From an uncultured Gammaproteobacteria bacterium (GTDB lineage Bacteria; Patescibacteriota; Microgenomatia; CAYXHB01; CAZYTL01), in contig CAZYTL010000009.1 of NCBI GenBank assembly GCA_964650355.1, positions 413-64,412 on the forward strand: a stretch of DNA of 64,000 nt, in the 5' to 3' direction. Positions 15,569 to 62,737 of the stretch are shown one piece after another (positions within the stretch are counted from its first letter, which is position 1; each line of letters starts with the position of its first letter). The translations under genes were made by a program, and so were the position numbers. The notes below the pieces were generated by a model. The model was not told the DNA's origin and searched no databases. It saw only the letters and a program-made list of their open reading frames with translations.

Positions 15569-16567
15569 TTAATATCCGGCGAGCAGGATGACGAGTTGGT
15601 TATTTCCTGCAATGCAGGTCCACTTAAATTCCTGATTGTTTAGTAAAGAGAGGCTTTCGTCATTAGATAACCAATAGTTAAGGACTTGATCCAAGCTTGG
15701 CTTGTTAACGGCGCTGGTCATTTTAATGAATTGAAAGTTGTGCATGGCGGCTTGGTTAACCTGCATATACTGATCAAAGGCGTCTTTAGGTTCAGTGTTA
15801 TTTTTCATTATTACGTTGAAAATGTTAGCCAATGCCGTACAAAGATCAGGGTGGCTTTGCAAAGGGGGGATGTTTTGTTTCTCACGATAATCGTTTACGG
15901 CTCCAAGAATTTGGTTGGCTGAATAAGTTGTATTACTTCGGGAAAGAACAGACCCCTGATCAAGAGAGGGAAAAACGCCGTTGACAGCCCATTCCGGATG
16001 GGTGTGAATATTCGGAAGAGACGTTTGAGGATCATATGACAGTTTAGCCGTGCCTTTGTCTTGGTCTTCTTGGGTAAGGGCGGCCATAAACACCCGCAAA
16101 TATTTTAGTTGATAGTGAGAATCAGTCTGCGCATAAGGACTGATTTCGATCAGGTAGTCTCCCGGACCGGCTAAGTGGTCGTAGACCTGTCCGTTTAATT
16201 GCCATTCCGGGCTCCACACACCAGGTTTGTTCTCATTTCGGACCCGGACATAACCATTGATTAAGTAGTCTTCCAAATTAGTGATCATTACCTTAATGGG
16301 ATGATTGGGATAGACTTCATACTCATTTAGATCGATTGTGTATCCTGAATTTGCTTGAGGGGTAGGTTGAGGTTGATTGAAGGTAGTGACTATTGTTGGG
16401 GTGGGAGTCGGTAGATTGGTTGCTTGGTGAAGAAATGCCAGAGGAAGATTATGGGTGAAGAACAACGTAAGAATGCCTGTTGTCACGAACAGAAGGGCAA
16501 GCGCGAGCACCAGCCGCTTAATTTTAAGGCGATTAGTCGTTTCCATAAAATCCCTTATCTTGGTCAA
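15569..16567 (-). CDS. Membrane-anchored extracytoplasmic protein, possible C-terminal CAP/SCP-like domain
   Basis: N-terminal TM and PTPTPT linker; C-terminal ILGAVNDYREKQNIPPLQSHPDLCTALA resembles bacterial CAP (YkwD-like) domains. Confidence 0.45.
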   Translation of the reverse strand: MTKIRDFMETTNRLKIKRLVLALALLFVTTGILTLFFTHNLPLAFLHQATNLPTPTPTIVTTFNQPQPTPQANSGYTIDLNEYEVYPNHPIKVMITNLEDYLINGYVRVRNENKPGVWSPEWQLNGQVYDHLAGPGDYLIEISPYAQTDSHYQLKYLRVFMAALTQEDQDKGTAKLSYDPQTSLPNIHTHPEWAVNGVFPSLDQGSVLSRSNTTYSANQILGAVNDYREKQNIPPLQSHPDLCTALANIFNVIMKNNTEPKDAFDQYMQVNQAAMHNFQFIKMTSAVNKPSLDQVLNYWLSNDESLSLLNNQEFKWTCIAGNNQLVILLAGY

Positions 16568-16714
16568 ATTATACTATGCAGTGAGATTAATTCCATTAAT
16601 AGAGATACGGGCGTTTGAAGTAGAACCTTGGATTTACAAGCAAGAGATCGGACATTACTGATTGTTGACTAAAAATAGTTTACTAGTTAAATTGTAAATG
16701 TACTAAACCTTTTT

Positions 16715-17149
16715 ATGGTAAAAAATGAACTTATAGAGCAGCTGTTTAACACTTTAGTCCAGTTGAGAAAATTAGTCGCTCAACAAGTGCAGGAATCTTA
16801 TGAAGAGAAATCCTCTACATTGTTGCAGTTCTCTGCTTTGATTTTTTTAATAGAACAACCCAAGGCCACGGTGAGCGAGTTGGCCTCTTTTTTAAGGTTG
16901 TCAAAATCATCCGCTACCCAACTGGTAGAGCGGTTAGTAAAATTAAAACAGGTAGCCAGAGTACCCGACGAAGATGACCGGCGGGTAGTTAGATTACAAA
17001 TTACTCAACAAGGTAAAGCAGATCTGGCTTTGCTTAAAGAAAAAATGACCGACAAAATGACTAAATTTCTATCTAAAGTTCCTGAAAAAGATCTTAAAGA
17101 ATTAGTACGGATCCATACTGACTTAATTGAGGGCTTGAAACAAGGATAA
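16715..17149 (+). CDS. MarR-family transcriptional regulator
   Basis: wHTH ATVSELASFLRLSKSSATQLVERLVKLKQVAR...DRRVVRLQITQQG. Confidence 0.75.
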   Translation: MVKNELIEQLFNTLVQLRKLVAQQVQESYEEKSSTLLQFSALIFLIEQPKATVSELASFLRLSKSSATQLVERLVKLKQVARVPDEDDRRVVRLQITQQGKADLALLKEKMTDKMTKFLSKVPEKDLKELVRIHTDLIEGLKQG

Positions 17150-17154
17150 AGTTT

Positions 17155-17529
17155 ATGACATTCATCTTAATATTTGTAAGTTTAATATTCGTCTACTCTG
17201 TTCCGGTACTGGCCGCCGAATCAGGATTGTCCGTGCCCACATCTGCAGTAAGTGCTTTCTCGATCACCAGCGTTGGTGAATTTATCGGGGCAACTTTGTC
17301 TTTGGTTTACTTGGTAGCAGGAGTCGGGTTTGCCTTGTTTTTTCTCTATTCCGGAATCAGTATGGCTACCAGCGGGGGCGATAAGGGAAAATACCAGTCG
17401 GCTGCCGGCCACATGACTGCCGCATTTGTTGGATTAGGCATAATTGCTGTGGCTTGGGCGATTACTTTGTTAGCCCAAACATTTTTCGGAATCAATATTA
17501 CCAGTATTTCTTTGCCTAGGCCCTACTAA
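17155..17529 (+). CDS. T4SS-pilin-like (TrbC/VirB2-like) small membrane protein of the kind common in CPR genomes
   Basis: Signal peptide, then two hydrophobic helices separated by a short polar loop (LVYLVAGVGFALFFLYSGISMATSGGDKGKYQSAAGHMTAAFVGLGIIAVAWAITLL); same layout as the C-termini of ORFs 59254 and 60215. Confidence 0.55.
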   Translation: MTFILIFVSLIFVYSVPVLAAESGLSVPTSAVSAFSITSVGEFIGATLSLVYLVAGVGFALFFLYSGISMATSGGDKGKYQSAAGHMTAAFVGLGIIAVAWAITLLAQTFFGINITSISLPRPY

Positions 17530-17628
17530 AGTGGCCACAAAGTTTACACTTCGTAAGTAAACTGAGGGAATTGATCTTCCGGTCACCTGACCATCGTAAA
17601 TCAATCGGTTAATGATTATAATGGATTC

Positions 17629-18051
17629 ATGAATTGGTATGGTTATGCTTTACTGTCAGCTTTGTTTGCCGCCTTTACTGCCATTTTGGCCAAAGTAGGG
17701 GTAACCGGGGTGAATTCGAATTTGGCTACTGCGATCCGCACGGTGGTGATTTTGTTATTTGCCTGGGGGATTGTATTTTATCAAGGCACGGCCAAGCAGA
17801 TTTCATCCATCTCGAACTTTTCTCTTCTCTTTTTGATTCTTTCAGGAGTAGCAACCGGACTGTCGTGGTTGTTTTACTTCCGAGCTTTGCAGTTGGGCAA
17901 TGCTTCACAGGTGGTGCCGATTGACAAGTTAAGTCTGGTGATTGCCATCCTGCTGGCCGTGGTGGTTTTAAGAGAGAAGTTGACGCTGACATTAATGATC
18001 GGAGCCTTGCTAATGAGCGTGGGAGCAGTAGTCATCGGATTAAACAACTAG
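17629..18051 (+). CDS. EamA-like (DMT superfamily) small transporter, 4 TM
   Basis: 140 aa with four hydrophobic helices, similar to single EamA-domain proteins. Confidence 0.65.
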   Translation: MNWYGYALLSALFAAFTAILAKVGVTGVNSNLATAIRTVVILLFAWGIVFYQGTAKQISSISNFSLLFLILSGVATGLSWLFYFRALQLGNASQVVPIDKLSLVIAILLAVVVLREKLTLTLMIGALLMSVGAVVIGLNN

Positions 18052-21499: not shown

Positions 21500-24340
21500 T
21501 TATGATGGAAGTTGTGGATAATGACACTTTTTCCACTTTTTGCCTGAGCCGCACCAGCAGGGGTCGTTGCGGCCGATTTTTTTGGTGACCACGGTTTGCT
21601 GGGAACCTTTGTGTGAAGTTTTGCTTGGGTCTGAGGAGGCTCTGACCCCGGACATGGCAGAAGCAAAGGATGAGAGATCGGTTTTCGGTTGTCTGCGGCC
21701 GGTTTCCGGTTGCTTTTTAACAGGACCTTGACTAGGCTGTGCGGGGGCTTGTTCTGCTTGTTCGGCAAGATCAAGGCTTTCGTGTACGGTTTGGGCTTGG
21801 TCAAGAGAGAGGGCAGGTTGAGGGATCTGCAATTGGATTTGGGTGCGGAGAATGCGGCGGATGAGTTGATAATCAATCTGGCTCATCAAGCGTTCAAACA
21901 TGGAAAAAGCTTCTTGTTTGTATTCATTTAAGGGATCTCTTTGGCCGTAACCTCTTAAACCAATACCTTCCCGCAAATCATCAATAGCATCCAGGTGGTC
22001 CATCCACAAACGGTCAATGACGGAACGCTGGGTGGCGCGTTCCATCTGGCGCATGATTTCAGGAGAGACTTCTTTTTCTTTTTCTTCGTAGGCCTTTTCG
22101 ACTTGACTGAACAGCTCTTGTTTGACTTCTTGAGCTTCGGGTTGGGATTCGATGAGGTCGCGAACTTGGTCCATTTGTTGATGGTCCATGGGCATCAGTT
22201 CGGCCACGGTGGTAACTAGCTGGTCGATTTCTTTGGCCACAAATCCCTGCGGGGCATAAAGGGTGACCATTTGGTCGATTTCGTTTTGGGCTTTTTCTAG
22301 TATTTCGGGTTTGAATTCAACTTCCTCCAAGGTGCGTTGACGCAAATCATAGATGATCTCCCGTTGTTTGTTCATGACGTCATCGTATTCAACTAAGTGT
22401 TTGCGCTGGTCAAAATGGAAGCCTTCGACTTTAACCTGAGCCTGTTCGATTGATTTAGAGACCAGGTTTGATTCAATGGGTTGATCTTCCGGCAGTTTCA
22501 AAGCAGTCATCAGGTTGGCGATTTGTTCTCCGCCGAACAGGCGCATGATGTCGTCGTTTAAAGCCACGTAAAAGCGGCTGGCGCCGTGGTCTCCCTGTCT
22601 GCCTGACCGGCCGCGGAGCTGGTTGTCAATCCGACGGGATTCGTGGCGCTCAGTGCCGACTACCATTAATCCACCGGCTTCGATGACCTGGTCGTGTTTT
22701 TTTTGCCATTGCTGGAGATCTTTTTCGTATTGGGTTTGGGCTTTTTTGGTTTTGTCCTTAGGTTGCTCTGGTTTGGCCCCTCCCAAGACGATATCCACTC
22801 CCCGACCGGCAATATTGGTAGCCACGGTCACGGCTCCGGGTGCGCCTGCCTGGGCGATGATGGCGGCTTCTTTTTCATGGTTTTTAGCGTTTAATACCTG
22901 GTGCGGGACGCCCTTGTGTTTGAGTAATTCAGCAACGATTTCGTTTTTCTCAATTGACGTGGTGCCGACCAACACGGGCTGGCCTTTCTGGTGGAGTTCC
23001 GCTATTTGATTAGCAATAGCCCCGTATTTGGCCCGGGTGGTTTTGTAAACGACATCCGCATTGTCCTGGCGGACTACTGGTTTGTTGGTGGGGACGACCA
23101 CCACTTCCAATTCATAAATTTTGCGAAATTCTTCGGCTTCGGTGGCGGCAGTACCGGTCATGCCGGCCAGTTTCTGGTACATGCGGAAGTAATTCTGCAG
23201 TGAGATGGTGGCTAAAGTGCGGGATTCCTGTTGGATTTTGACTCCTTCTTTGGCCTCGACGGCCTGATGCATGCCTTCTGACCAACGCCGGCCAGGCATA
23301 AGCCTGCCGGTAAATTCATCAACGATCACGATTTGGTCGTCTTTGACAATGTATTCACGGTCTCGTAAATACAAGGTTTTTGCTCGCAAGGCATTTTCTA
23401 TGTGGTGAATAGTATCAAAATCTTTTTCGTAAAGGTTGTCTACTCCCAGAATTTTTTCCACTTTGCGAATGCCATGTTCGGTTAAGGCCGCGGATTTAAG
23501 TTTTTCATCTATGGTGTAGTCCGTATCACTGGAAAGACGGTTAACCAGTTGGTTGAATTGCAGGTATTTGTCAGTGGGTTCGGTATCAGGCATGGAAATA
23601 ATCAACGGAGTGCGAGCTTCGTCAACGAGAATGGAATCGACCTCGTCAACAATGGCAAAGTGGTGACCACGTTGGTTTTGGCGTTCAGGAGATTGGGCCA
23701 TGTTGTCGCGCAGGTAATCGAACCCGAATTCGGTATTGGTACCGTAGATGATGTCAGTTTCGTAAGCTTCTTTTCTGGTCACGGCTTTCAGGTGGCGCAG
23801 GCGTTCGTCATCGTGTTCCGGCTCAGTGTATTCAGGATCATAAAGCAAACCTCTGAGTCCCGGATCCTGGATGACTACGGCCACGGACATGCCCAGTAAA
23901 TTTAATACGGGACCGTTCCAACCAGCGTCCCGGCGGGCCAGGTAGTCGTTGACGGTCACCAAATGGCAGCCATTACCCTTAAGGGCATTCAAATACAAGG
24001 CCGGGATGGCAGAAAAAGTTTTACCTTCCCCTGTTTTCTGTTCAGCGATTTTGCCTTCATGAAGAGCAATGGCGGCAATCATCTGCACGTCGTACTGTCG
24101 GATGTCAATGGTTCTGTGGGAGGCTTCCCGGACCAAAGCAAAGGCTTCCGGCAGAATGTCGTCCAAGCTATCCCCTCTTTCCAGACGAAGTTTAAAGTCG
24201 GCTGTTTGGGCGGCAAAATCTTCCTGTTTGAGTTTTTCCATTTGCGGCTCCAGAGCATTGATTTGCTCCACGATTTTTTGCAACCGATTGAGTTCTTTTT
24301 GGTTGGTATCCAGTAATTTTTTAATGATATCGAATGCCAT
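21500..24340 (-). CDS. secA: Preprotein translocase ATPase SecA
   Basis: 946 aa; DEAD-motor motifs (MKTGEGKT, LVDEARTPLIIS, TNIAGRGVDI) and C-terminal zinc-binding tail CWCGSGKKWKKCH. Confidence 0.95.
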   Translation of the reverse strand: MAFDIIKKLLDTNQKELNRLQKIVEQINALEPQMEKLKQEDFAAQTADFKLRLERGDSLDDILPEAFALVREASHRTIDIRQYDVQMIAAIALHEGKIAEQKTGEGKTFSAIPALYLNALKGNGCHLVTVNDYLARRDAGWNGPVLNLLGMSVAVVIQDPGLRGLLYDPEYTEPEHDDERLRHLKAVTRKEAYETDIIYGTNTEFGFDYLRDNMAQSPERQNQRGHHFAIVDEVDSILVDEARTPLIISMPDTEPTDKYLQFNQLVNRLSSDTDYTIDEKLKSAALTEHGIRKVEKILGVDNLYEKDFDTIHHIENALRAKTLYLRDREYIVKDDQIVIVDEFTGRLMPGRRWSEGMHQAVEAKEGVKIQQESRTLATISLQNYFRMYQKLAGMTGTAATEAEEFRKIYELEVVVVPTNKPVVRQDNADVVYKTTRAKYGAIANQIAELHQKGQPVLVGTTSIEKNEIVAELLKHKGVPHQVLNAKNHEKEAAIIAQAGAPGAVTVATNIAGRGVDIVLGGAKPEQPKDKTKKAQTQYEKDLQQWQKKHDQVIEAGGLMVVGTERHESRRIDNQLRGRSGRQGDHGASRFYVALNDDIMRLFGGEQIANLMTALKLPEDQPIESNLVSKSIEQAQVKVEGFHFDQRKHLVEYDDVMNKQREIIYDLRQRTLEEVEFKPEILEKAQNEIDQMVTLYAPQGFVAKEIDQLVTTVAELMPMDHQQMDQVRDLIESQPEAQEVKQELFSQVEKAYEEKEKEVSPEIMRQMERATQRSVIDRLWMDHLDAIDDLREGIGLRGYGQRDPLNEYKQEAFSMFERLMSQIDYQLIRRILRTQIQLQIPQPALSLDQAQTVHESLDLAEQAEQAPAQPSQGPVKKQPETGRRQPKTDLSSFASAMSGVRASSDPSKTSHKGSQQTVVTKKIGRNDPCWCGSGKKWKKCHYPQLPS

Positions 24341-45064: not shown

Positions 45065-46282
45065 ATGATACTAAGCATGGAATTATTATTTTTGATTAGA
45101 ACCGCTTATGTAGATCTGAAAAGGAATAAAGTCAGATCTTTGTTAACCTCTTTGGGCATTCTCATCGGAGTATTTTCTGTGGTGACTTTAATTGCCTTCG
45201 GGTTGGGGTTGAGGGGGTTTATTCAGGAACAATTTGCAAAAATCGGCACCAATCTGGTGATCGTGTTTCCGGGCAACTTTTCATCAGATCAGGGTGGATA
45301 CCAGGATAGCGAAGGAGGTTTGGGAATGATCACCTTTGACCAACGGGATTTTCAGGCACTTCAACGAATTAAAGTGGCCAAATATGTGGTTCCAGCGTTT
45401 ATTAAAGTAGTGAAAATAGAAGCAGGAGGAGAGTCGAAAGTGCGCAGTTTGTTCGCTTCCACAGCAGATATTTTCCCCGTACAGAACTGCGAGATAGAGT
45501 ACGGAAGGTTGTTTACTGAAGCGGATGTGAGAAAAGAGGTAAAAATAGCGGTATTGGGTTCAAAAGTGGCAGAGGAGCATTTTGGCAGCGGTCAGAACGC
45601 GGTGGGCAAAACGGTACGGTTAGACGATCAAAGGTTTAAGGTGGTTGGAGTACTCAAAGCCAAAGGCGGCGGGCTGGGCGGACGGGATTTTGATACCTTT
45701 ATTTACACTCCTTATACGGCTGCCTATGTTTTCAATCCAGATAAAACTTTTGCCGCTTTTTACATGCAGGCCAAAAATAAAGAAGACATTCCGGAATTAA
45801 AATCCGAAGCCCAAAAGATTTTGGAGAAACGCTATGACAAAGAAGATTTTTCGGTGATTGAACAGACGGAAATTTTGGGGATTGTGGACGAGATTTTCGG
45901 GATGATTAATTTATTGTTGGTGGCTTTGGGATCAATTTCTTTGGTGGTAGGCGGAGTGGGAATTATGAATATTATGTACGCTTCCGTGACAGAAAGAACC
46001 AAAGAAGTGGGGATCAGACGGGCGTTGGGAGCCACCAAACAGGACATTCTGGTGCAGTTTTTGTCAGAAGCGGTGATTTTGGCCTTGTTCGGGGGATTAG
46101 CAGGTCTGGGCATTGCCACTGTCGGAGTGATCATCGCCCGGCACTGGTTCCCGGCGGCGATTAACCTGATGTCGATTGGTCTGGCATTGGGAGTGTCATC
46201 AGTGATTGGGATCACATTTGGAGTTTTTCCAGCCCGCAAAGCTGCCACCTTGCCTCCGATCGAAGCAATTAGAAGACATTAG
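45065..46282 (+). CDS. FtsX/MacB-type ABC transporter permease
   Basis: N-terminal TM, large periplasmic domain, three C-terminal TM with [25 protein letters not shown] motif. Confidence 0.8.
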   Translation: [405 protein letters not shown]

Positions 46283-46292
46283 TTTAAGAAAT

Positions 46293-47510
46293 ATGTTTAA
46301 TTTCATTTTGTTAATAAAAACTTCCACTACAGATTTGCTTAAAAATAAGATCCGCACCGGATTGACTTCTCTGGGGATTCTGATCGGGGTGATGTCAGTA
46401 GTGTTATTATTGGCTTTTGGCCAGGGACTGAAAAACTTTGTGACTCAACAACTGGAAAATTTAGGCGCCAACGTACTATTCGTTTATCCCGGCGACATAT
46501 TAAACAGTACCAGTCAGGCTGGCGGAGGCATGTTGGGAACTGTGAAGTTTGACCAAAAAGATTTGAAAAATTTACAGAAATTGAATTTGGCAAAATATGT
46601 AGTTCCGGTATTTATTAAGCGGTCAACGATAAAAGGGGGCAGTGAAAAAAAGCTCAGTGATTTATATGCCACGACTCCTGATATTTTTAAAATTCGTGAT
46701 TTAAAACCCCAAACAGGAAGATTGTTTACTGACGCAGACATAGGAAAAAGAGCCAAAATCGCTGTTTTGGGGCCTAAGATTGCCAAAGATTTGTTCGGGA
46801 ATGAAGTGCAGGCTGTGGGAAAAACCGTCCGGGCTGAAGACCAGAGGTTTACTGTGGTAGGCGTGATTGAGCCCGTCGGAGGGGCCGGAGGGGGAGGTGG
46901 TATTTCCGGCCCTGATTATGACTCCTATACTTATATTCCTTTCACAGCGGCCACGGCTTTTAATCCTAAAAATGAAATTTATTCTTTTTATGTTACTGCG
47001 GCAACAAAAGACGACTTGCCAGATTTGAAGGCTGAGATTGTGAAAGTGATGAGTGACCGCTACAAAAAGGATGAGTATTCGGTGATTGAGCAAAAGGAGA
47101 TTTTAAGTATCTTTGGCAACATTTTTCAGATTATCAATGCTGTGCTGGTAGCCATCGGGTCGATTTCTTTACTGGTAGGCGGGGTCGGGATCATGAATAT
47201 TATGTACGCGACGGTCACGGAAAGAACTACTGAAATAGGCATCCGTAGAGCCCTAGGAGCTACCAAGGGAGATATTTTGGGGCTGTTTTTGATCCAGGCC
47301 ACACTCTTATCTTTGTTAGGGGGAATTATTGGATTGGCCTTGGCTACTTTGATAGTGATGTTGATTCAGCCGTGGTTTCCTGCCAGTATTAACCTGCTTT
47401 CGGTGATGGTGGCTCTGGTGGTGTCGTCGGCCATTGGGGTATTTTTTGGCGTGGTGCCGGCCACTAAAGCCGCCAAAAGATCCCCTATTGATGCCATTAG
47501 GTATGAATAG
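46293..47510 (+). CDS. FtsX/MacB-type ABC transporter permease (tandem paralog)
   Basis: Paralog of the previous gene ([25 protein letters not shown]). The ORF track starts at 46206, but alignment with the paralog and the upstream stop at 46282 favour the ATG at 46293. Confidence 0.8.
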   Translation: [405 protein letters not shown]

Positions 47511-47555: not shown

Positions 47556-48344
47556 CTAAGACGAGGCGCTCGTATAGCTGCGGATGGCAAAGTTCCAGAA
47601 GCTGTGGCTGAGATAGAGAAACATCGTGGCTAAGATGATGGGTAAAGTCCATGCCCATGGTTGTGCTTGACCAAGGATAAGCTGGGTCGGAGTGTAGACG
47701 ATGATGCCGACCGGAATGATAAAGGTAATGATGGCTTGCAAGACGATGGGGTAGGCGGTTTTGGGAAACTGGGCGGTTTCGAAAATTGGCGGGAAGAGGT
47801 TAACGATATTTTCCAATCTACCAAAATAGAAAGCGACAGTAATGCTGATAAACCACAAGGCATAGGTAAGAATCATGCCGGAAATCAGTAAGGGAATAAT
47901 GATCACCAGAGACCAATAATTAAAGGTCAAGTTCAGATGTTGGAAACTGTAGATCAGCAGAGCGGTTCCCATCATCAGGGAGGAGATTTGATTGACACTG
48001 ATACGCCTTGTTGAAAGGAAAAATTGGCTGTCGATGGGTTTGGTGAGCCATAAATCCAACTCTCCTTTGTTAATCATTCTGGGAATGGGAAATAAATTGG
48101 GCCAAAAGTATCCCCAAAATACAGCGCTGAAATAGCGATACCAACCGAGTAACATGAGAATCTGGTAGTAGTTCCAGCCGCCCAAAAGCCTGACCTTGCC
48201 GTATAAAGCAGTAAAAAAGATAATCGCCAGTACTCCCCAGGCCAGATCCACGAAGAACCACATGATGAAATCACCCCGATAGGTGAGGCTGGCCACAATG
48301 GAGTATTTAAGCTGGATATAAAACATTCTTAGATAACGATTCAT
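47556..48344 (-). CDS. ABC-2-type transporter permease
   Basis: 6 TM, 262 aa, typical ABC-2 permease architecture. Confidence 0.6.
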   Translation of the reverse strand: MNRYLRMFYIQLKYSIVASLTYRGDFIMWFFVDLAWGVLAIIFFTALYGKVRLLGGWNYYQILMLLGWYRYFSAVFWGYFWPNLFPIPRMINKGELDLWLTKPIDSQFFLSTRRISVNQISSLMMGTALLIYSFQHLNLTFNYWSLVIIIPLLISGMILTYALWFISITVAFYFGRLENIVNLFPPIFETAQFPKTAYPIVLQAIITFIIPVGIIVYTPTQLILGQAQPWAWTLPIILATMFLYLSHSFWNFAIRSYTSASS

Positions 48345-48350
48345 ATGGTT

Positions 48351-49145
48351 TTACCCCCCAACTGCCGAATATCTTTTTAATCCCTGTTTCCAAAGATAAA
48401 GAAGCAATAATCCTAGAATCAGCAACCAAGCAAGAGATTGGAAGAGACTGAGATAGATCTGTTCCTGATTCACTTGACCCAGGAAGACAGAGATGGGTAA
48501 ATAGTAAAGGAGTTTAAACGGCAGCCACTGGCTGATAGTCTGCAGCCAGGAGGGTAAGAAGGTGAGAGGAATAGTCGCGCCTCCTAACACGGATTCAAAC
48601 ATCCATTGAGCATGTTTGAGTCCGTCAATGGATTTGAAAAAGAAGGCTAGACTCAGGAGGATCATTTCTAATAAAAAACAAATAAGATTGGCCATGATAA
48701 TCAGGAGAATAAACCAGCCGACGGATGATAGCTGAGGGATGATCCAATAGGATTGAAAAAGAAGCCAAAGGGCGATTAACAGCGGAATAAATAGGATGCC
48801 GAATCTGATCATGGTGCGAGTGAAGCTGTCAACAAAGGCAATGCGGATGAACTGAATGGGTTTCATCAGATAGGCGGAAATCTCACCGGTGCGAATTTGT
48901 TGGGCCAGGTAGTCGCTGAAATGGTAACTGATGAATCTGGAAATGACTAAGGAGAGAAAATAATAGGTAATGATTTGAGCCAGGCTATAACCGCCCACTT
49001 GTTTTTGATTCATAGCCAGCCAGACGAAAACCATAGACAGGATGGGAATCAGCTCGATGATCTGCCAAAGCATGGTTTCCGCCCGGTAATTAATAGTATC
49101 AATAAATCTGATTTTGGCTAAGGCGATGTATTTCTTCATAGGCAT
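48351..49145 (-). CDS. ABC-2-type transporter permease (paired with 47556-48344)
   Basis: 6 TM, 264 aa, adjacent and co-oriented with the other ABC-2 permease. Confidence 0.6.
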   Translation of the reverse strand: MPMKKYIALAKIRFIDTINYRAETMLWQIIELIPILSMVFVWLAMNQKQVGGYSLAQIITYYFLSLVISRFISYHFSDYLAQQIRTGEISAYLMKPIQFIRIAFVDSFTRTMIRFGILFIPLLIALWLLFQSYWIIPQLSSVGWFILLIIMANLICFLLEMILLSLAFFFKSIDGLKHAQWMFESVLGGATIPLTFLPSWLQTISQWLPFKLLYYLPISVFLGQVNQEQIYLSLFQSLAWLLILGLLLLYLWKQGLKRYSAVGG

Positions 49146-51204: not shown

Positions 51205-51792
51205 ATGAATCTGAGATTTTCCCGGGCAAAATTAGATGCAGTTTTTAAGCACTTAAGCTACATTTTTTTGGACATTATTCAAACGGTGGTGATGGCCCTG
51301 GCAGTGTTTGTGGTGGTGTACTTGTTTGTCTTCCAACCAAATCAAGTAAAAGGCAGTTCAATGGTGCCGACATTGGAAGATGGCGAGTACGTATTAACAG
51401 ATAAGTTAACTTACAGATGGGTACGAGGTCCAGAAAGAGGAGATATTGTGGTATTTGAAGCTCCAGAGAATGAAAAATACGATTTTATCAAGCGGATAAT
51501 AGGTCTGCCTGGAGATGTGATCACTCTTAAAGACGGGAGAGTGTATGTGAATAATGAGTTATTGCCAGAAGAGTATCTTCCCCCCACTACCCAGACGGCT
51601 TCTGGAGCCTTTTTAAAGAACAATCAACCTTATATAATTCCCGAGGGTGGTTATATCGTGATGGGGGACAACCGGAGATTTTCCAGTGATTCCCGAGAAT
51701 GGGGACCGGTGCCGACTGATCATTTAATTGGCAGAGCCTGGTTTCGCTATTGGCCTCCGGGACGTATTGGGGTGATTTATCACGGCGAATGA
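51205..51792 (+). CDS. lepB: Signal peptidase I
   Basis: GSSMVPTLEDGEYVL (SM-PTL box), KRIIGLPGD, GDNRRFSSDSREWG. Confidence 0.85.
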   Translation: MNLRFSRAKLDAVFKHLSYIFLDIIQTVVMALAVFVVVYLFVFQPNQVKGSSMVPTLEDGEYVLTDKLTYRWVRGPERGDIVVFEAPENEKYDFIKRIIGLPGDVITLKDGRVYVNNELLPEEYLPPTTQTASGAFLKNNQPYIIPEGGYIVMGDNRRFSSDSREWGPVPTDHLIGRAWFRYWPPGRIGVIYHGE

Positions 51793-57810: not shown

Positions 57811-58983
57811 TTACTTCCTGATGTTTCTTAAAAATGCAGGAATGTCAAAATCATCGCCTTCAGTGGGTGATTCGGTATCATCTTGGGGTTGATCCTGGTC
57901 GTCGGTGTGCTGTTCATCCGTAGTTTGTTGCACAGGTTGGGCTGGTTGATCGTCGGAGAGGGAGCCAATCAGACCGGTGGCTGGTTTGACGCTCGGAGGT
58001 TTGGTAAAGTGAGCAATGCGGGCTTGAGTATCATCAAATCCGGTAGCAATGACCGTGATTTGAATTTCGTCGGCCAGTGCCCTATCAATGGTGGCGCCAA
58101 AAATGATGTTGGCGTCAGAAGCAGCGCTTTGAGCAATGATCTGGGCGGCTTCATCCACTTCGGTCATGGTCAGGTCCTCACCGCCGGTAATGTTAAACAG
58201 GATGCCTTTGGCCCCTTCAATGGATAGCTCAAGCAAAGGGGAAGAAATGGCGGATTTGGCTGCGGCTTGTGCCCGATTTTCACCGGTGCCCACGCCGATG
58301 CCCATCAGGGCTGATCCGGCGCTTTCCATGATGGCTTTGACGTCAGCAAAGTCAACGTTAATCAAACCCGGAACGGTGATGATGTCAGAGATGCCTTTTA
58401 CACCTTGATTAAGCACAGAATCAACCATTTTAAAGGCATTGAGCAGGGTGACTTTGCGATCGACCACATCCAACAAGCGTTGATTGGGGATGACGATCAT
58501 GGTGTCTACTTTTTCTTTGAGGTTAGTCAAACCTTCTTCGGCCACTGACATGCGTCTGGTGCCTTCAAAGGCAAAGGGTTTGGTGACGATAGCCACGGTT
58601 AAAGCGCCGACTTCTTGAGCGACTTCCGCTACCACAGGCCCGGCGCCAGTACCGGTACCACCACCAGCGCCGTAGGTGACAAACACCATATCACTGTCAG
58701 TTAAGTATTCCCTGATCTTGTCCCTGGATTCTTCTGCAGCGGCTGTGCCGATGTCCGGATCGGCTCCGGAACCTAAACCTTTGGTAACTTGCTCGCCGAT
58801 TTGGAGTTTAAGTTCAGCCTGGTTTTGAAGCAGGGCCTGAGCGTCGGTGTTAATGGAAATGAAGTCCACGCCGGCAATCTGACCGTCTGAAATCATGGTA
58901 TTGATGGCATTACTGCCCCCACCACCCACACCCACAACTTTGATTCTGGCAAAACCGCCGAGACTGGATTTAACGAGTGCCAT
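57811..58983 (-). CDS. ftsZ: Cell division GTPase FtsZ
   Basis: [13 protein letters not shown] tubulin signature, [22 protein letters not shown]; acidic C-terminal tail. Confidence 0.95.
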
Positions 58984-59253: not shown

Positions 59254-60171
59254 ATGCTGAGAGTAAACATGGATGGAAGTCATAAATTTTCACTAAAGCT
59301 AATTGGTTTAATATCTCTGTCCTTCTTGATATTTTTCTTGGTGCTAATTTTTCCTCCCCAGTCGTACGCGCAAGGGTATTATCGATGCTATGATGCTGGT
59401 GGAGTGGGTGCTTGTATGGATGTTGAGCCCCATTGCGCAAGTGACTACGTGACTCCTGCTGGTGCCTGCACACTAGGTGAGACGTGTAATGAAAATCATC
59501 CGTGTGTGGCTCCCACAATAACTCCTATTCCTATTGGTGATTGTGACTGCGATGCTTCCTGCAACGTGATTTCAGGTACAAATACTTGCGCCTCTGGAAC
59601 TACTGCTACCTGCGACCCTCAGGATCCTAATTTAGGCTATTGTCTCGGTGGCTGTAGTTGTTCAGTTCCGCAGGGATCTTTAGCCTGTAATGCTCAGTGT
59701 ACTGAGGATAATCAATGTGACCCTGATACCGGTTGTGGAGTATGTGCAAATGTAGGGACCTGGTTAGTTCATGATTTCCGTTGTGTGACACCCACACCAG
59801 CGTCATCTTCAACGGATGTCCTCCCTTATAATCCTTGTGAAGGGGTGGAAGACAGAGGAGCTTGCGAGACTTGTGTAAGTGGTGGCGGAGCATATACTGC
59901 GTTGGGATGTATTGATACAGATCCTGGTCCGTTTGCTGCTGAAATTATCAAAATTTTATTTGGACTGGCTGGAGGGGTAGCTTTCCTGCTGATGATTTAC
60001 GGGGCTTTTCTGTGTGTAACCAGCAGAGGTGATCCGCAAAAAGCCCAGGCGTGCAGAGAAACTATCACCGCGGCAGTGGTGGGGTTGTTGATGTTAATTT
60101 TTTCTCTGTTCATTGTGCGGTTGATTTTTGGACCGATAGGGATTATTCCTGGCCTAGTAGATATTTTTTAG
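59254..60171 (+). CDS. Cys-rich extracytoplasmic protein with C-terminal T4SS-pilin-like (TrbC/VirB2-like) two-helix anchor
   Basis: Signal/TM; ~190-aa region with >30 Cys (CYDAGGVGACMDVEPHCASDYVTPAGACTLGETCNENHPC...CDCDASC...); C-terminus IIKILFGLAGGVAFLLMIYGAFLCVTSRGDPQKAQACRETITAAVVGLLMLIFSLFIV. Confidence 0.6.
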   Translation: MLRVNMDGSHKFSLKLIGLISLSFLIFFLVLIFPPQSYAQGYYRCYDAGGVGACMDVEPHCASDYVTPAGACTLGETCNENHPCVAPTITPIPIGDCDCDASCNVISGTNTCASGTTATCDPQDPNLGYCLGGCSCSVPQGSLACNAQCTEDNQCDPDTGCGVCANVGTWLVHDFRCVTPTPASSSTDVLPYNPCEGVEDRGACETCVSGGGAYTALGCIDTDPGPFAAEIIKILFGLAGGVAFLLMIYGAFLCVTSRGDPQKAQACRETITAAVVGLLMLIFSLFIVRLIFGPIGIIPGLVDIF

Positions 60172-60214
60172 ACGTTTTTAGTTAAACTAAAAACGTCCCA
60201 AAGTTTATTTATAT

Positions 60215-60781
60215 ATGAATATGCGAGGTTTATTTCGAGTCACGGTTATAGTTGGTTCCTTCCTAGCAATATTCTACTTATTACCCAGTAAATTCTTTTA
60301 TATCCGGGCTCAACTTGAAAATATTTGTTGCTCAACGCCCGGCGACTGTCAAGATCCTAGTAAACCCAACTGCGTGGAACCTGGCGCGGGACAAGAGGAT
60401 TGTGATCGAGCCCACGGAACGCTACTTAATAAACCACGGTATTGTGCTGCGCCTTCGGGAAGTAATCCTAGCTTTAGGATTCCGAATTATCGGGAAATCG
60501 GTCAATCTGGTTTTCGTTTTTTCCAAGGTAATCCCAGCACGCTTGATGTTGGAAAAATAGTTTCGGAATTACTCCCTTATGTATACGTACTGGCTGGGCT
60601 GCTGTTGTTTGGTTATTTGATTTACGGCGGGTTTCATTTGGTGACCTCGTTCGGCTCCCCGAAAGCGATTTTGGAGGCCTGGTTGATTATTTTCAGGGCT
60701 TTAGTGGGATTTGTCATGGTATTTGTGTCTTTCTGGCTGATTCAGATAGTGGAAAGGATTTTTGGGTTGGATATACTCTAA
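60215..60781 (+). CDS. Cys-rich protein with C-terminal T4SS-pilin-like anchor (tandem paralog)
   Basis: N-terminal TM, Cys-rich region (CCSTPGDCQDPSKPNCVEPGAGQEDCDRAHG...YCAAP); C-terminus VYVLAGLLLFGYLIYGGFHLVTSFGSPKAILEAWLIIFRALVGFVMVFVSFWLI. Confidence 0.6.
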   Translation: MNMRGLFRVTVIVGSFLAIFYLLPSKFFYIRAQLENICCSTPGDCQDPSKPNCVEPGAGQEDCDRAHGTLLNKPRYCAAPSGSNPSFRIPNYREIGQSGFRFFQGNPSTLDVGKIVSELLPYVYVLAGLLLFGYLIYGGFHLVTSFGSPKAILEAWLIIFRALVGFVMVFVSFWLIQIVERIFGLDIL

Positions 60782-60876
60782 CTACTCCCCTGCTGAGAGA
60801 AGGTTGAGCTTGAAGAGGAGAAATCGACAGCAGATTGAATTTACTAATTGACAAAAACGCTGATAAATCTTAAAGT

Positions 60877-61665
60877 TTGTTCATGGCTTCTGAAGGTACG
60901 TCTTCGAATGGTAAACGAAACGGGATGCCGGGATTTGCAGTAATTTTATTGATCGCCGGTGCCTTTATCGTGGGGATGTTTTGGAACCGGTTGACCAGCC
61001 TGGAAAGGCAAGTGGACGAATTAAAAGGCGGGAGTAAACCTCAGGCGGCTGCTGGAAATCAAGCCGGCACGGGGCAAGTGAATAATCAGCCGACTGCTGC
61101 GGACCAGCCGCAATTAGGTAGTGCTGCGCAGGTTGATCCGGTAACTGAAACTGATCATCTTCGAGGTAATCCCAAGGCGGATATTATATTGATTGAGTAT
61201 TCGGATTTTCAGTGTCCTTTTTGCCATCAGTTCCACCCTACTATGCAACAGGTAATGAAAGACTACGGAGACAAAGTTGCCTGGGTTTATCGTCATTTTC
61301 CTCTGACTCAACTTCATCCTAATGCTCAACCGGCAGCTGAAGCGTCGGAATGTGTGGCTGAATTGGGCGGCAATGATGCGTTCTGGAAGTACGCTGATGA
61401 ATTGTTCACAGGAACAGATTTATCTAAGGACGGTCTCACCACAGCGGCAGTTAAGATAGGAGTGGATAAGACTAAGTTCACCAGTTGTTTTGAGAGTGGT
61501 AAATACACCCAAAAAGTTAATGATTTGATGGCTTCGGGTCAAAAGGCAGGAATAAACGGAACGCCTGGGACGGTAATTTTGCAAGTAAGTACAGGTAAAA
61601 CAACTTTGATTCCTGGGGCGTATCCAGTAGCCCAGGTGGAGCAGGCGATAGATAGTTTCCTTTAA
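60877..61665 (+). CDS. Membrane-anchored DsbA-like thiol:disulfide oxidoreductase
   Basis: TM GFAVILLIAGAFIVGMF; thioredoxin CxxC active site YSDFQCPFCHQFHP; DsbA-like helical insertion. Confidence 0.8.
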   Translation: MFMASEGTSSNGKRNGMPGFAVILLIAGAFIVGMFWNRLTSLERQVDELKGGSKPQAAAGNQAGTGQVNNQPTAADQPQLGSAAQVDPVTETDHLRGNPKADIILIEYSDFQCPFCHQFHPTMQQVMKDYGDKVAWVYRHFPLTQLHPNAQPAAEASECVAELGGNDAFWKYADELFTGTDLSKDGLTTAAVKIGVDKTKFTSCFESGKYTQKVNDLMASGQKAGINGTPGTVILQVSTGKTTLIPGAYPVAQVEQAIDSFL

Positions 61666-61864: not shown

Positions 61865-62737
61865 CTAATCCTTAGAAGTCCTCTGAAACTCTTCCAGAAG
61901 TCTTTTTTGTTCTCCGGTTAGTTTATCAGGAAGGTCAACGATGATTCTCACATATTGGTCTCCCCTCCCCCCCCCATGAAGCCTAGGAGCGCCTTGGCTA
62001 GCCAAGCGGATCAGGCTGTGCGATTGGGTTCCTGGTCGGATTTTGATCTTTATGGGTTTCTCAATAGTAGAAACTTCTGTCTCGCCACCGAGAATGGCCT
62101 GAGTAAAGGGAATATGGTGATCAACGAAAATATTAGGCCCTTCCCGTTTGAATTGAGGGTGGGGTTTGACGTCAATACTGACATCAAAATCGGCAAATCG
62201 GATATGGGTGCCATCATCTGCCCCAGCAGGGATTTTAATAGTATGTTGTTTCCCCTGGATGACCACCTTTTTTTCTGTGCCGTGCATGGCTTCTTCAAAA
62301 CTGATGCTCAGAGAATAGTGCGGTTTGGCAGGACCACGGGCACCAAAGGGTGAAGCCCCGCCGAAAAATTGTTCGAAGATCTCAAAAGGATCGGAAAAAT
62401 CAAATTCGCTGAACGGGATGTTGCCGTTAGTGGAGTATGTGTAAGTGAAGGGTCCGGAACGATAGGTCCGAGCTTGAGGACCGCCAAACCCCCCGGGGAA
62501 TCCGGCCCCAGGAGAAAAGGCTGCCGGGCCAAATTGATCGTATTTTTGTCTTTTTTGGGGATCGGACAACACTTCGTAGGCTCGGTTTATTTCTTTGAAT
62601 TTTTTTTCGGCTTCTGGCGATTTGTTTTTGTCTGGATGCCACTGCAAAGCCAGCTTACGATAAGCTTTTTTGATTTCTTCGGCGCTGGAGCTTTTGGATA
62701 CTCCTAGAGTTTGGTAGAAATCTGAAGTCTCAGCCAT
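61865..62737 (-). CDS. J-domain co-chaperone (DnaJ type II/CbpA-like, no zinc-finger domain)
   Basis: J domain [33 protein letters not shown] with HPD; G/F-rich region; no CxxCxGxG repeats. Confidence 0.8.

Follow-up and report, generated by a model that had tools for sequence, protein, structure and literature searches.

A conserved pair of VirB2-like pilin genes, one with a cysteine-rich ectodomain, beside a dsbA gene that is probably not dedicated to them in a Microgenomatia contig

Three plus-strand genes occupy positions 59254-61665 of a 64-kb stretch of contig CAZYTL010000009.1 (hereafter the window), and are referred to as A, B and C; L and P numbers designate loci and proteins of relatives. 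Gene A (59254-60171) is an open reading frame (ORF) of 305 residues, for which NCBI places the start at the ATG at 59269 (300 residues). Gene B (60215-60781) encodes 188 residues, and gene C, or dsbA (60883-61665), encodes 260 residues from the ATG of the public gene calls or 262 from an alternative TTG at 60877. The ORF list bears out this placement, including strands and lengths, as the earlier note on this DNA had given it, and the 95-nt gap between B and C is recovered when C is counted from the TTG. Our analysis indicates that A and B are probably a conserved pair of VirB2-like pilins, in which A carries an ectodomain whose cysteines are presumably all in disulfides, and that the adjacent dsbA is a housekeeping gene rather than a dedicated partner. 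The earlier note had interpreted the three genes as a dedicated oxidative-folding module for pilin-like surface proteins, a proposal that is mostly unsupported by the surveys described below.

The C-terminal hairpin places A in the type IV secretion system (T4SS) pilin family of Pfam (T4SS_pilin, PF18895). A scores 29.2 bits as a full protein and 32.5 bits for the domain alone, above the gathering threshold of 26.6 bits. The match covers residues 230-291 and overlaps two helices at residues 224-256 and 261-292 (59923-60129, plus strand), which AlphaFold2 (AF2) predicts with a predicted local distance difference test (pLDDT) score of about 76-82. In both A and B a signal peptide precedes two hydrophobic helices with a short polar or basic loop between them, the hydropathy segments being residues 11-39, 226-257 and 266-305 in A, and 4-30, 114-144 and 150-185 in B. 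The claim that both proteins end in a pilin anchor holds at the family threshold for A, whereas B falls below it (17.8 bits, E 0.0036) and is nevertheless homologous. A phmmer search with the C-terminal 115 residues of A recovers B (8.7e-07), together with a third pilin of the window. In a diverse set of 88 domain representatives taken from related loci, 86 match PF18895, B (60491-60775) and B-like sequences among them; three of the 88 give a weak TrbC/VirB2 match (E at least 2.4e-4). From its sequence, B is best regarded as a divergent PF18895 protein. The NCBIfam model NF045849, which describes a pilin-like conjugal transfer protein of Mycoplasma integrative and conjugative elements, matches A, B and the third pilin below threshold (24.9 bits for B), and PF04956 (TrbC/VirB2) has no match to A or B at E ≤ 1. 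A protein identical to A is present on an NCBI contig and on a Logan contig.

The pairing of A with B extends well beyond the window. A search of species-representative genomes with the A family yielded 80 loci (1.16 Mb; L013-L092) from Shapirobacteria, Woesebacteria and other Microgenomatia, in which 'A+ B+' is the commonest layout, and an A-like gene followed by a B-like gene is also found in L002, L005, L006 and L007. In Microgenomatia the A-B gene pair is conserved, with B as the short-ectodomain paralogue of A. The cysteine content of the two proteins is very different. The earlier note described both as packed with cysteines, which fails for B: it has six in total, all within residues 38-77.

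Gene A contains 26 cysteines, of which 24 lie within residues 45-219 and two, C254 and C267, at the base of the hairpin; the figure of more than 30 in about 190 residues given previously is too high. Cysteine makes up 13.7% of residues 45-219 (24/175), as opposed to 0.7% of the long ORFs in the window, an enrichment far beyond chance. The motifs quoted earlier are found at residues 97-103 (CDCDASC), 132-137 (GGCSCS) and 161-168 (CGVCANVG). The cysteine-rich region is preceded by a predicted signal peptide, residues 1-39 (59254-59370, plus strand), with a hydrophobic stretch at residues 11-39 and an AF2 helix at residues 10-32. Cleavage probably occurs after the SYA sequence, which would leave an N-terminal Gln, and the x-A-Q junction is also found in homologues. 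The ectodomain proper, residues 40-220 (59371-59913, plus strand), has no Pfam domain. It comprises two modules, of 6 and then 14 cysteines, the first followed by a Pro-rich and the second by a Thr/Pro/Ser linker, and finally a conserved 4-Cys neck. The four neck cysteines (C195, C204, C207 and C219) are invariant across the nine closest sequences. An AlphaFold check of the ectodomain, as the earlier note had advised, succeeded for the neck (pLDDT 85-88 at residues 190-222, from a 9-sequence alignment) and not for residues 36-182, where pLDDT is below 50 and the pairing is unreadable.

The ectodomain begins with a module of about 45 residues and six cysteines (59365-59520, residues 38-89) that carries the motif C-x-x-G/D-Y-x-V/T-P. 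A strict regular expression (Y-x-C...C...C-x-x-G-Y-x-x-P) matches A and P0002 only, and looser copies are recognized by eye in P0007 and P0009. The module is possibly a new type of small, disulfide-rich domain, although the sequence evidence is thin and we do not name a domain family on this basis.

Most of the ectodomain diverges rapidly. A search of 5.8 billion clustered proteins gave thirteen homologues of A, with alignments that are mainly C-terminal and cover 25-61% of the query. When the ectodomain by itself (residues 40-220) was searched exhaustively with HMMER against 1.84 billion representatives, only A itself and one spurious eukaryote-like repeat protein were returned. The ectodomain has no real match outside itself and is therefore called hypervariable; the positions of its cysteines are not conserved between homologues. 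A known domain in the cysteine-rich region was sought in Pfam at E ≤ 1, which returned nothing. A diversity-generating retroelement was also considered as the source of the variability and rejected, as the window contains no template-like repeat of A and no reverse transcriptase was present among the scanned proteins.

Despite this divergence in position, the number of cysteines is almost always even, as expected if all extracellular cysteines of A-type pilins are disulfide-bonded. The total is even in A and in all of P0002-P0010, and in 42 of 48 long pilin-like ORFs of the fetched loci (A-like by best phmmer match; maximum 36), a set of sequences related to each other. Even counts occur in 59% of all long ORFs in these loci. 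They are also found in 61 of the 75 other ORFs with at least eight cysteines in the same loci; since these cysteine-rich controls are mostly even too, parity fits proteins that are secreted and fully oxidized and is not specific to pilins. The cysteines could alternatively bind metal (Zn, Cu or Fe-S) in a metallothionein-like manner. The dense CxC and CxxC spacing (CDCDASC, CSCS, CGVC) would suit such a role, and more distant paralogues of DsbA are located in copper-resistance clusters. The cysteine domain is, however, predicted to lie outside the membrane behind a Sec signal peptide, its cysteine positions vary between homologues, nearly every family member has an even count, and neither His enrichment nor a known metal-binding Pfam domain is found. 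Metal binding is thus highly improbable.

A different pattern is seen for the two cysteines of the hairpin. C254 and C267 (60013-60015 and 60052-60054) bracket the loop SRGDPQKAQ in the arrangement C-VTSRGDPQKAQA-C, and occur together in A and its eight closest homologues. Forms with C254 only or C267 only are absent from about 390 other family domains, all of which lack both residues. This all-or-none occurrence suggests that the two cysteines pair with each other. The usual pilin topology would place them at the cytoplasmic end of the hairpin, beyond the reach of DsbA.

Gene C encodes a DsbA-like protein with a CPFC active site and an N-terminal anchor, in agreement with the original description. 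It matches DSBA with 68.3 bits (cut-off 25.6) over positions 2-190 of the 191 in the model, and Thioredoxin_4 with 79 bits. The CPFC motif is at residues 113-116 (61213-61224); in 37 family sequences, namely C and 36 homologues, the active site is CPFC in 31 and CPYC in six. The best relatives in the PDB (4n30, 3gyk, ScsC and BdbD, 3eu3, E 2.3e-05) are DsbA-like. The sequence G-T-P-G-T of C aligns with the G-I-T-A-T-P loop of 4n30, and a cis-Pro conformation is anticipated from this alignment. C has a single hydrophobic segment, at the N-terminus (residues 14-40), a long Gln/Ala/Gly/Pro linker and a second conserved cysteine pair, C159/C204. By analogy with MdbA/BdbD-type proteins, and considering this second pair, the catalytic domain is presumably extracytoplasmic. 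The family is widespread: 3943 homologues were found across the Candidate Phyla Radiation (CPR), many of which come from Microgenomatia and are annotated as DsbA family or protein-disulfide isomerase, and they include proteins of Daviesbacteria, Gottesmanbacteria, Roizmanbacteria and other Patescibacteria. No re-oxidizing partner (VKOR, DsbB or BdbC) was detected among the approximately 56 proteins of the window that were scanned.

A specialized role of C would imply that dsbA accompanies the cysteine-rich pilins in other genomes. In the reading of A, B and dsbA as a dedicated oxidative-folding module, C is a DsbA paralogue specialized for these pilins and co-regulated with them. Its attractions are that dsbA directly follows B on the same strand, 95 nt away, and that A is an unusually demanding substrate, with 24 cysteines predicted to be extracytoplasmic. 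C also gives a weak match to the TrbB model TIGR02738, but this is limited to the CXXC region and far under threshold (17.9 bits versus a cut-off of 132). Reciprocal surveys argue against the module. No DsbA-like ORF was found within 10 kb in any of the 80 pilin loci (0/80), even beside pilins with 20-33 cysteines, and FtsZ and DnaJ were likewise found in none of them. Conversely, a scan with C yielded 80 metagenomic loci (0.79 Mb), two of which contain a pilin (2/80), in both cases about 9 kb away and on the opposite strand. In the closest A orthologues with downstream context (L002 and L005), the pilin genes are followed by a polytopic membrane protein and not by DsbA.

The immediate surroundings of dsbA in its closest relatives add detail. 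In the window, A is flanked upstream by ftsZ (57811-58983, minus strand), and dsbA is convergent with a DnaJ-type co-chaperone gene (61865-62737, minus strand; PF00226 and PF01556, DnaJ and DnaJ_C), which confirms the flanks named in the earlier note. The closest dsbA orthologues are 59-64% identical to C. In L173, a B-like C-terminal fragment lies 106 nt upstream of dsbA and dnaJ is convergent downstream. L175 and L176 have the order B-like ORF, Gp49/helix-turn-helix (HigB/HigA-like) toxin-antitoxin pair, dsbA and dnaJ. The toxin-antitoxin pair (L175:346-955, also in L176) appears as an insertion, and the B-like ORF at L175:2-319 is hidden by a spurious minus-strand gene call. By contrast, the relatives L008 and L009 have glycosyltransferases (GT2 in L008) before dsbA and dnaJ, with no B upstream, and L174 has dsbA with neither pilin nor dnaJ. 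DsbA beside unrelated genes in relatives is what the earlier note had named as grounds for rejecting its model. B is therefore upstream of dsbA in three of the five nearest contexts (the window, L173 and L175/L176), and the convergent dsbA-dnaJ arrangement is kept in four (the window, L173, L175 and L008/L009), at least as often as B.

The distribution of the B-dsbA linkage follows the relatedness of the neighboring DnaJ, which is 78% and 72% identical to that of the window in the B-linked loci L173 and L175, and 68% in the unlinked L008, so that the linkage counts as roughly one phylogenetic event. Adjacency of B and dsbA is confined to the window and its two closest relatives, and fits a single rearrangement. 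The DnaJ gene itself is a syntenic neighbor and lies outside the pilin/DsbA system.

A further argument for the independence of dsbA comes from its upstream region. A promoter-like element, TTGACA-17-TAAAGT (60848-60876, plus strand; 10 of 12 consensus matches), is positioned just 5' of dsbA, and is the only such match in the window versus 0.05 expected. An alignment shows TTGAC-N18-TA[AG]AGT upstream of dsbA in all five orthologous loci despite their differing upstream genes. The -10-like element and the ATG are about 7 nt apart in both the window and L175, implying that the dsbA mRNA may be leaderless there; in the other three loci a leader of 30-50 nt is present. No strong terminator was found after B, and read-through into dsbA may occur. 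From these sequence features, the window dsbA is best supported as an independently transcribed housekeeping gene that is common across CPR and carries its own promoter-like element, with its adjacency to the pilins representing clade-specific synteny. The dedicated module is accordingly improbable: besides the surveys, it is at odds with dsbA genes that lack pilins (L008 and L174), with the toxin-antitoxin pair that separates B from dsbA in L175 and with the conserved promoter-like element. We retain it at a low level because the adjacency, with B-like genes 5' of dsbA, persists in the two closest relatives. An enzyme-substrate relation between C and the pilins is plausible in the generic sense of a housekeeping oxidoreductase.

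The reading that we favor, a VirB2-like pilin pair served by a general oxidoreductase, can be described as a sequence of steps. A and B would be exported via Sec, and their signal peptides removed; the window encodes SecA (21500-24340) and a type I signal peptidase of family S26 (51205-51792). The C-terminal two-helix hairpin would then hold both proteins in the membrane with the basic loop toward the cytoplasm, and their later placement in a T4SS-type pilus or surface fiber is probable. A would display a fast-diverging ectodomain of about 180 residues whose 24 cysteines probably form 12 disulfides and which most likely serves in host contact or specificity, and B would display a short 6-Cys stalk. 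The disulfides would be made outside the membrane by the general DsbA/MdbA-like oxidoreductase of the cell. The pilin pair was presumably brought beside dsbA-dnaJ by a rearrangement in a recent ancestor.

Several observations weigh against this reading, in addition to the parity of the cysteine-rich controls and the relatedness of the sequences counted. The top PDB match of A in Foldseek, the Aeropyrum conjugation pilin 8dfu, agrees with a pilin but is non-significant, and fold searches do not discriminate among helical hairpins. No pilin was recovered at E ≤ 10 when the family profile was run against the sequences of the PDB. VirB4, VirB6 and VirD4 are absent from the approximately 56 window proteins scanned with Pfam, which leaves the A-B pair detached from any secretion apparatus in the 64-kb window. 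The Lys and Arg counts beside the anchor of C (2.0 in the N-terminal versus 2.24 in the C-terminal flank, 37 sequences) are too close to decide its topology. The B-DsbA adjacency recurs in the two closest relatives, and a selective benefit of proximity is possible. Finally, to our knowledge no PF18895 protein has been shown to form a filament.

The PF18895 hairpin might accordingly serve as a membrane anchor only, with A and B acting as surface adhesins or receptors, or as accessory channel parts of a monoderm T4SS, and no pilus being formed. VirB2 pili are normally absent from monoderm MPF-FATA systems (PMC12102498), an ectodomain of 180 residues per subunit would be expected to crowd a VirB2-type helical filament, the C254/C267 pair would sit at the cytoplasm-facing base of the hairpin, and no T4SS ATPase is encoded nearby in the window. 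On the other hand, the proteins have sequence kinship with conjugative pilin families, and the arrays are treated as potential pili in PMC12857230. In addition, multi-gene arrays of short and long paralogues lie next to a gene for peptidoglycan-remodeling SpoIID in 77 of the 80 loci, an arrangement typical of wall-crossing structures. An anchor without a pilus is a serious alternative, though an unlikely one.

The SpoIID-domain gene is the most constant companion of the pilin arrays. The canonical layout in the 80 Microgenomatia loci is 'SpoIID- | A+ B+', with or without 4-6 further pilins, with the SpoIID gene oriented divergently from the first PF18895 pilin; of the three exceptions, two are at contig ends. 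It encodes about 565-595 residues with a signal peptide (e.g., L003:8174-9955, minus strand). No SpoIID homologue was found in the window. A VirB1 equivalent is reported missing for these systems (PMC12102498), and the SpoIID gene may be the peptidoglycan-opening VirB1 equivalent of the pilin arrays. This leads to a more speculative extension, in which the long PF18895 pilins are adhesin-bearing subunits of a T4SS-type pilus in a monoderm CPR bacterium. Their hypervariable, disulfide-knotted N-terminal domains would decorate or cap the fiber and set host-strain specificity, the C254-C267 disulfide would lock the hairpin, and the SpoIID-like protein would supply the missing VirB1 function by opening the wall for the pilus. 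C254 and C267 would be cytoplasmic in the membrane stage and become oxidized only after extraction into the filament. We regard this extension as tentative and, taken as a whole, doubtful.

Other genes recur in the arrays of relatives. Long arrays are followed by a secreted protein of 1375 residues with 34 cysteines and by a polytopic membrane protein (L003:13916-19781; L002:11839-13398; L060:17247-18296). The latter has 519-565 residues, a signal peptide, at least five transmembrane segments and a VirB6-like architecture, and no Pfam match. A family with a borderline PrgI (VirB3-like) match (26.5 versus a cut-off of 27 bits) is found in eight loci, and a protein of 613 residues without a Pfam match recurs in 63. 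Many records of metagenome-assembled genomes with typical CPR pilin arrays (L013, L014, L016, L033, L043, L088 and others) bear the title 'uncultured Gammaproteobacteria', 'Candidatus Methanoperedens', 'Bathyarchaeia' or 'Alphaproteobacteria', and are probably mislabeled or mis-binned submissions.

Within the A-B pair of the window, the 43-nt spacer contains a stem-loop with a perfect 12-bp stem (60171-60197, plus strand), which begins at the last base of the stop codon of A. Its minimum free energy of -13.5 kcal/mol (z = -4.7) was equaled by none of 200 shuffles; it is AT-rich and is followed by no clean T-run. The spacer is lacking in L002, L005 and L006, where the A-like gene runs directly up to or into the B-like gene. 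The element could act in attenuation within the operon or in RNA stability.

The third PF18895 pilin of the window (17155-17529, plus strand) has 124 residues, no cysteines and a score of 31.2 bits. It lies 3' of a MarR regulator gene (16715-17149; MarR_2, 48.8 bits), and the two belong to a second cluster of small surface proteins at 15569-18051. This cluster also includes a CAP-like secreted protein (15569-16567, minus strand; 20.1 bits, just under the cut-off) and a half-size EamA transporter (17629-18051). Elsewhere in the window, two tandem MacB_PCD/FtsX permease paralogues (45065-47510) have ORFs that overlap at 46206-46282 and share a 234-nt repeat with 71% identity; two ABC-2 membrane genes follow on the opposite strand (47556-49145).

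Comparison with known systems separates what is already published from what is new. Patescibacteria carry VirB2-like pilin arrays of 2-11 genes, especially in Microgenomatia and Saccharimonadia, and these were identified with the PF18895 model (Quinonero-Coronel et al. 2025, PMC12102498). A and B resemble them in family, tandem divergent paralogues, taxon class, and the combination of signal peptide and two-helix hairpin. They differ in that the window pair is detached from array and T4SS genes, and in that A has an ectodomain of about 180 residues with 24 cysteines and a loop-bracketing cysteine pair. No Cys-rich ectodomain is mentioned in PMC12102498, where 'cysteine' occurs once, for the VirB1 peptidase domain. 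The VirB2/TrbC/TraA pilins (PF04956; F, T and pKM101 pili, and the archaeal CedA-type 8dfu) share the post-signal hydrophobic hairpin and basic loop, but A has no significant sequence or fold match to them and the organism of the window is monoderm; the canonical members lack a large N-terminal ectodomain and have few or no cysteines.

For the oxidoreductase, a role in pilin folding was proposed by Meheust et al. for an MdbA-like enzyme enriched in CPR, with VKOR as a frequent neighbor that is adjacent in 76 CPR genomes (10.1101/335083); MdbA is reported there to oxidize pilins. C resembles MdbA of Actinomyces oris and Corynebacterium diphtheriae and BdbD of Bacillus subtilis in its N-terminal anchor, thioredoxin fold with helical insertion, CxxC motif and cis-Pro loop. 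It differs in its long linker and in that VKOR/BdbC was not found in the window, and the substrates of MdbA are sortase-assembled pilins, as opposed to the VirB2-like proteins considered here. TrbB/TraF of F-type conjugation provides a conceptual precedent for a disulfide isomerase dedicated to a T4SS and encoded with the pilus genes. Unlike TrbB/TraF, C matches TIGR02738 at the CXXC only and its linkage to pilins is not conserved. In a limited literature library, no paper combining Patescibacteria, DsbA and pilins was found, nor was any description of Cys-rich long pilin forms.

Both the VirB2-like arrays of Patescibacteria and pilin folding by a CPR MdbA-like enzyme (10.1101/335083) are thus already published. 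The fresher points are modest: long pilins with hypervariable ectodomains of even cysteine number, a co-occurring cysteine pair in the hairpin, and a near-universal adjacent and divergent SpoIID gene. As the neighboring DsbA appears to be a general housekeeping enzyme, its adjacency in this organism should not be taken as a specialized folding operon.

CPR bacteria, or Patescibacteria, rely on physical contact with host cells. In a cultivated Saccharibacterium, the pilin array is reported to be essential (PMC12857230, citing Wang et al. 2023), and VirB2-like arrays are thus indispensable in the one genetically tractable CPR species. The long Cys-rich members of the family are candidate host-recognition modules, and provide targets for expression, structure and binding work.

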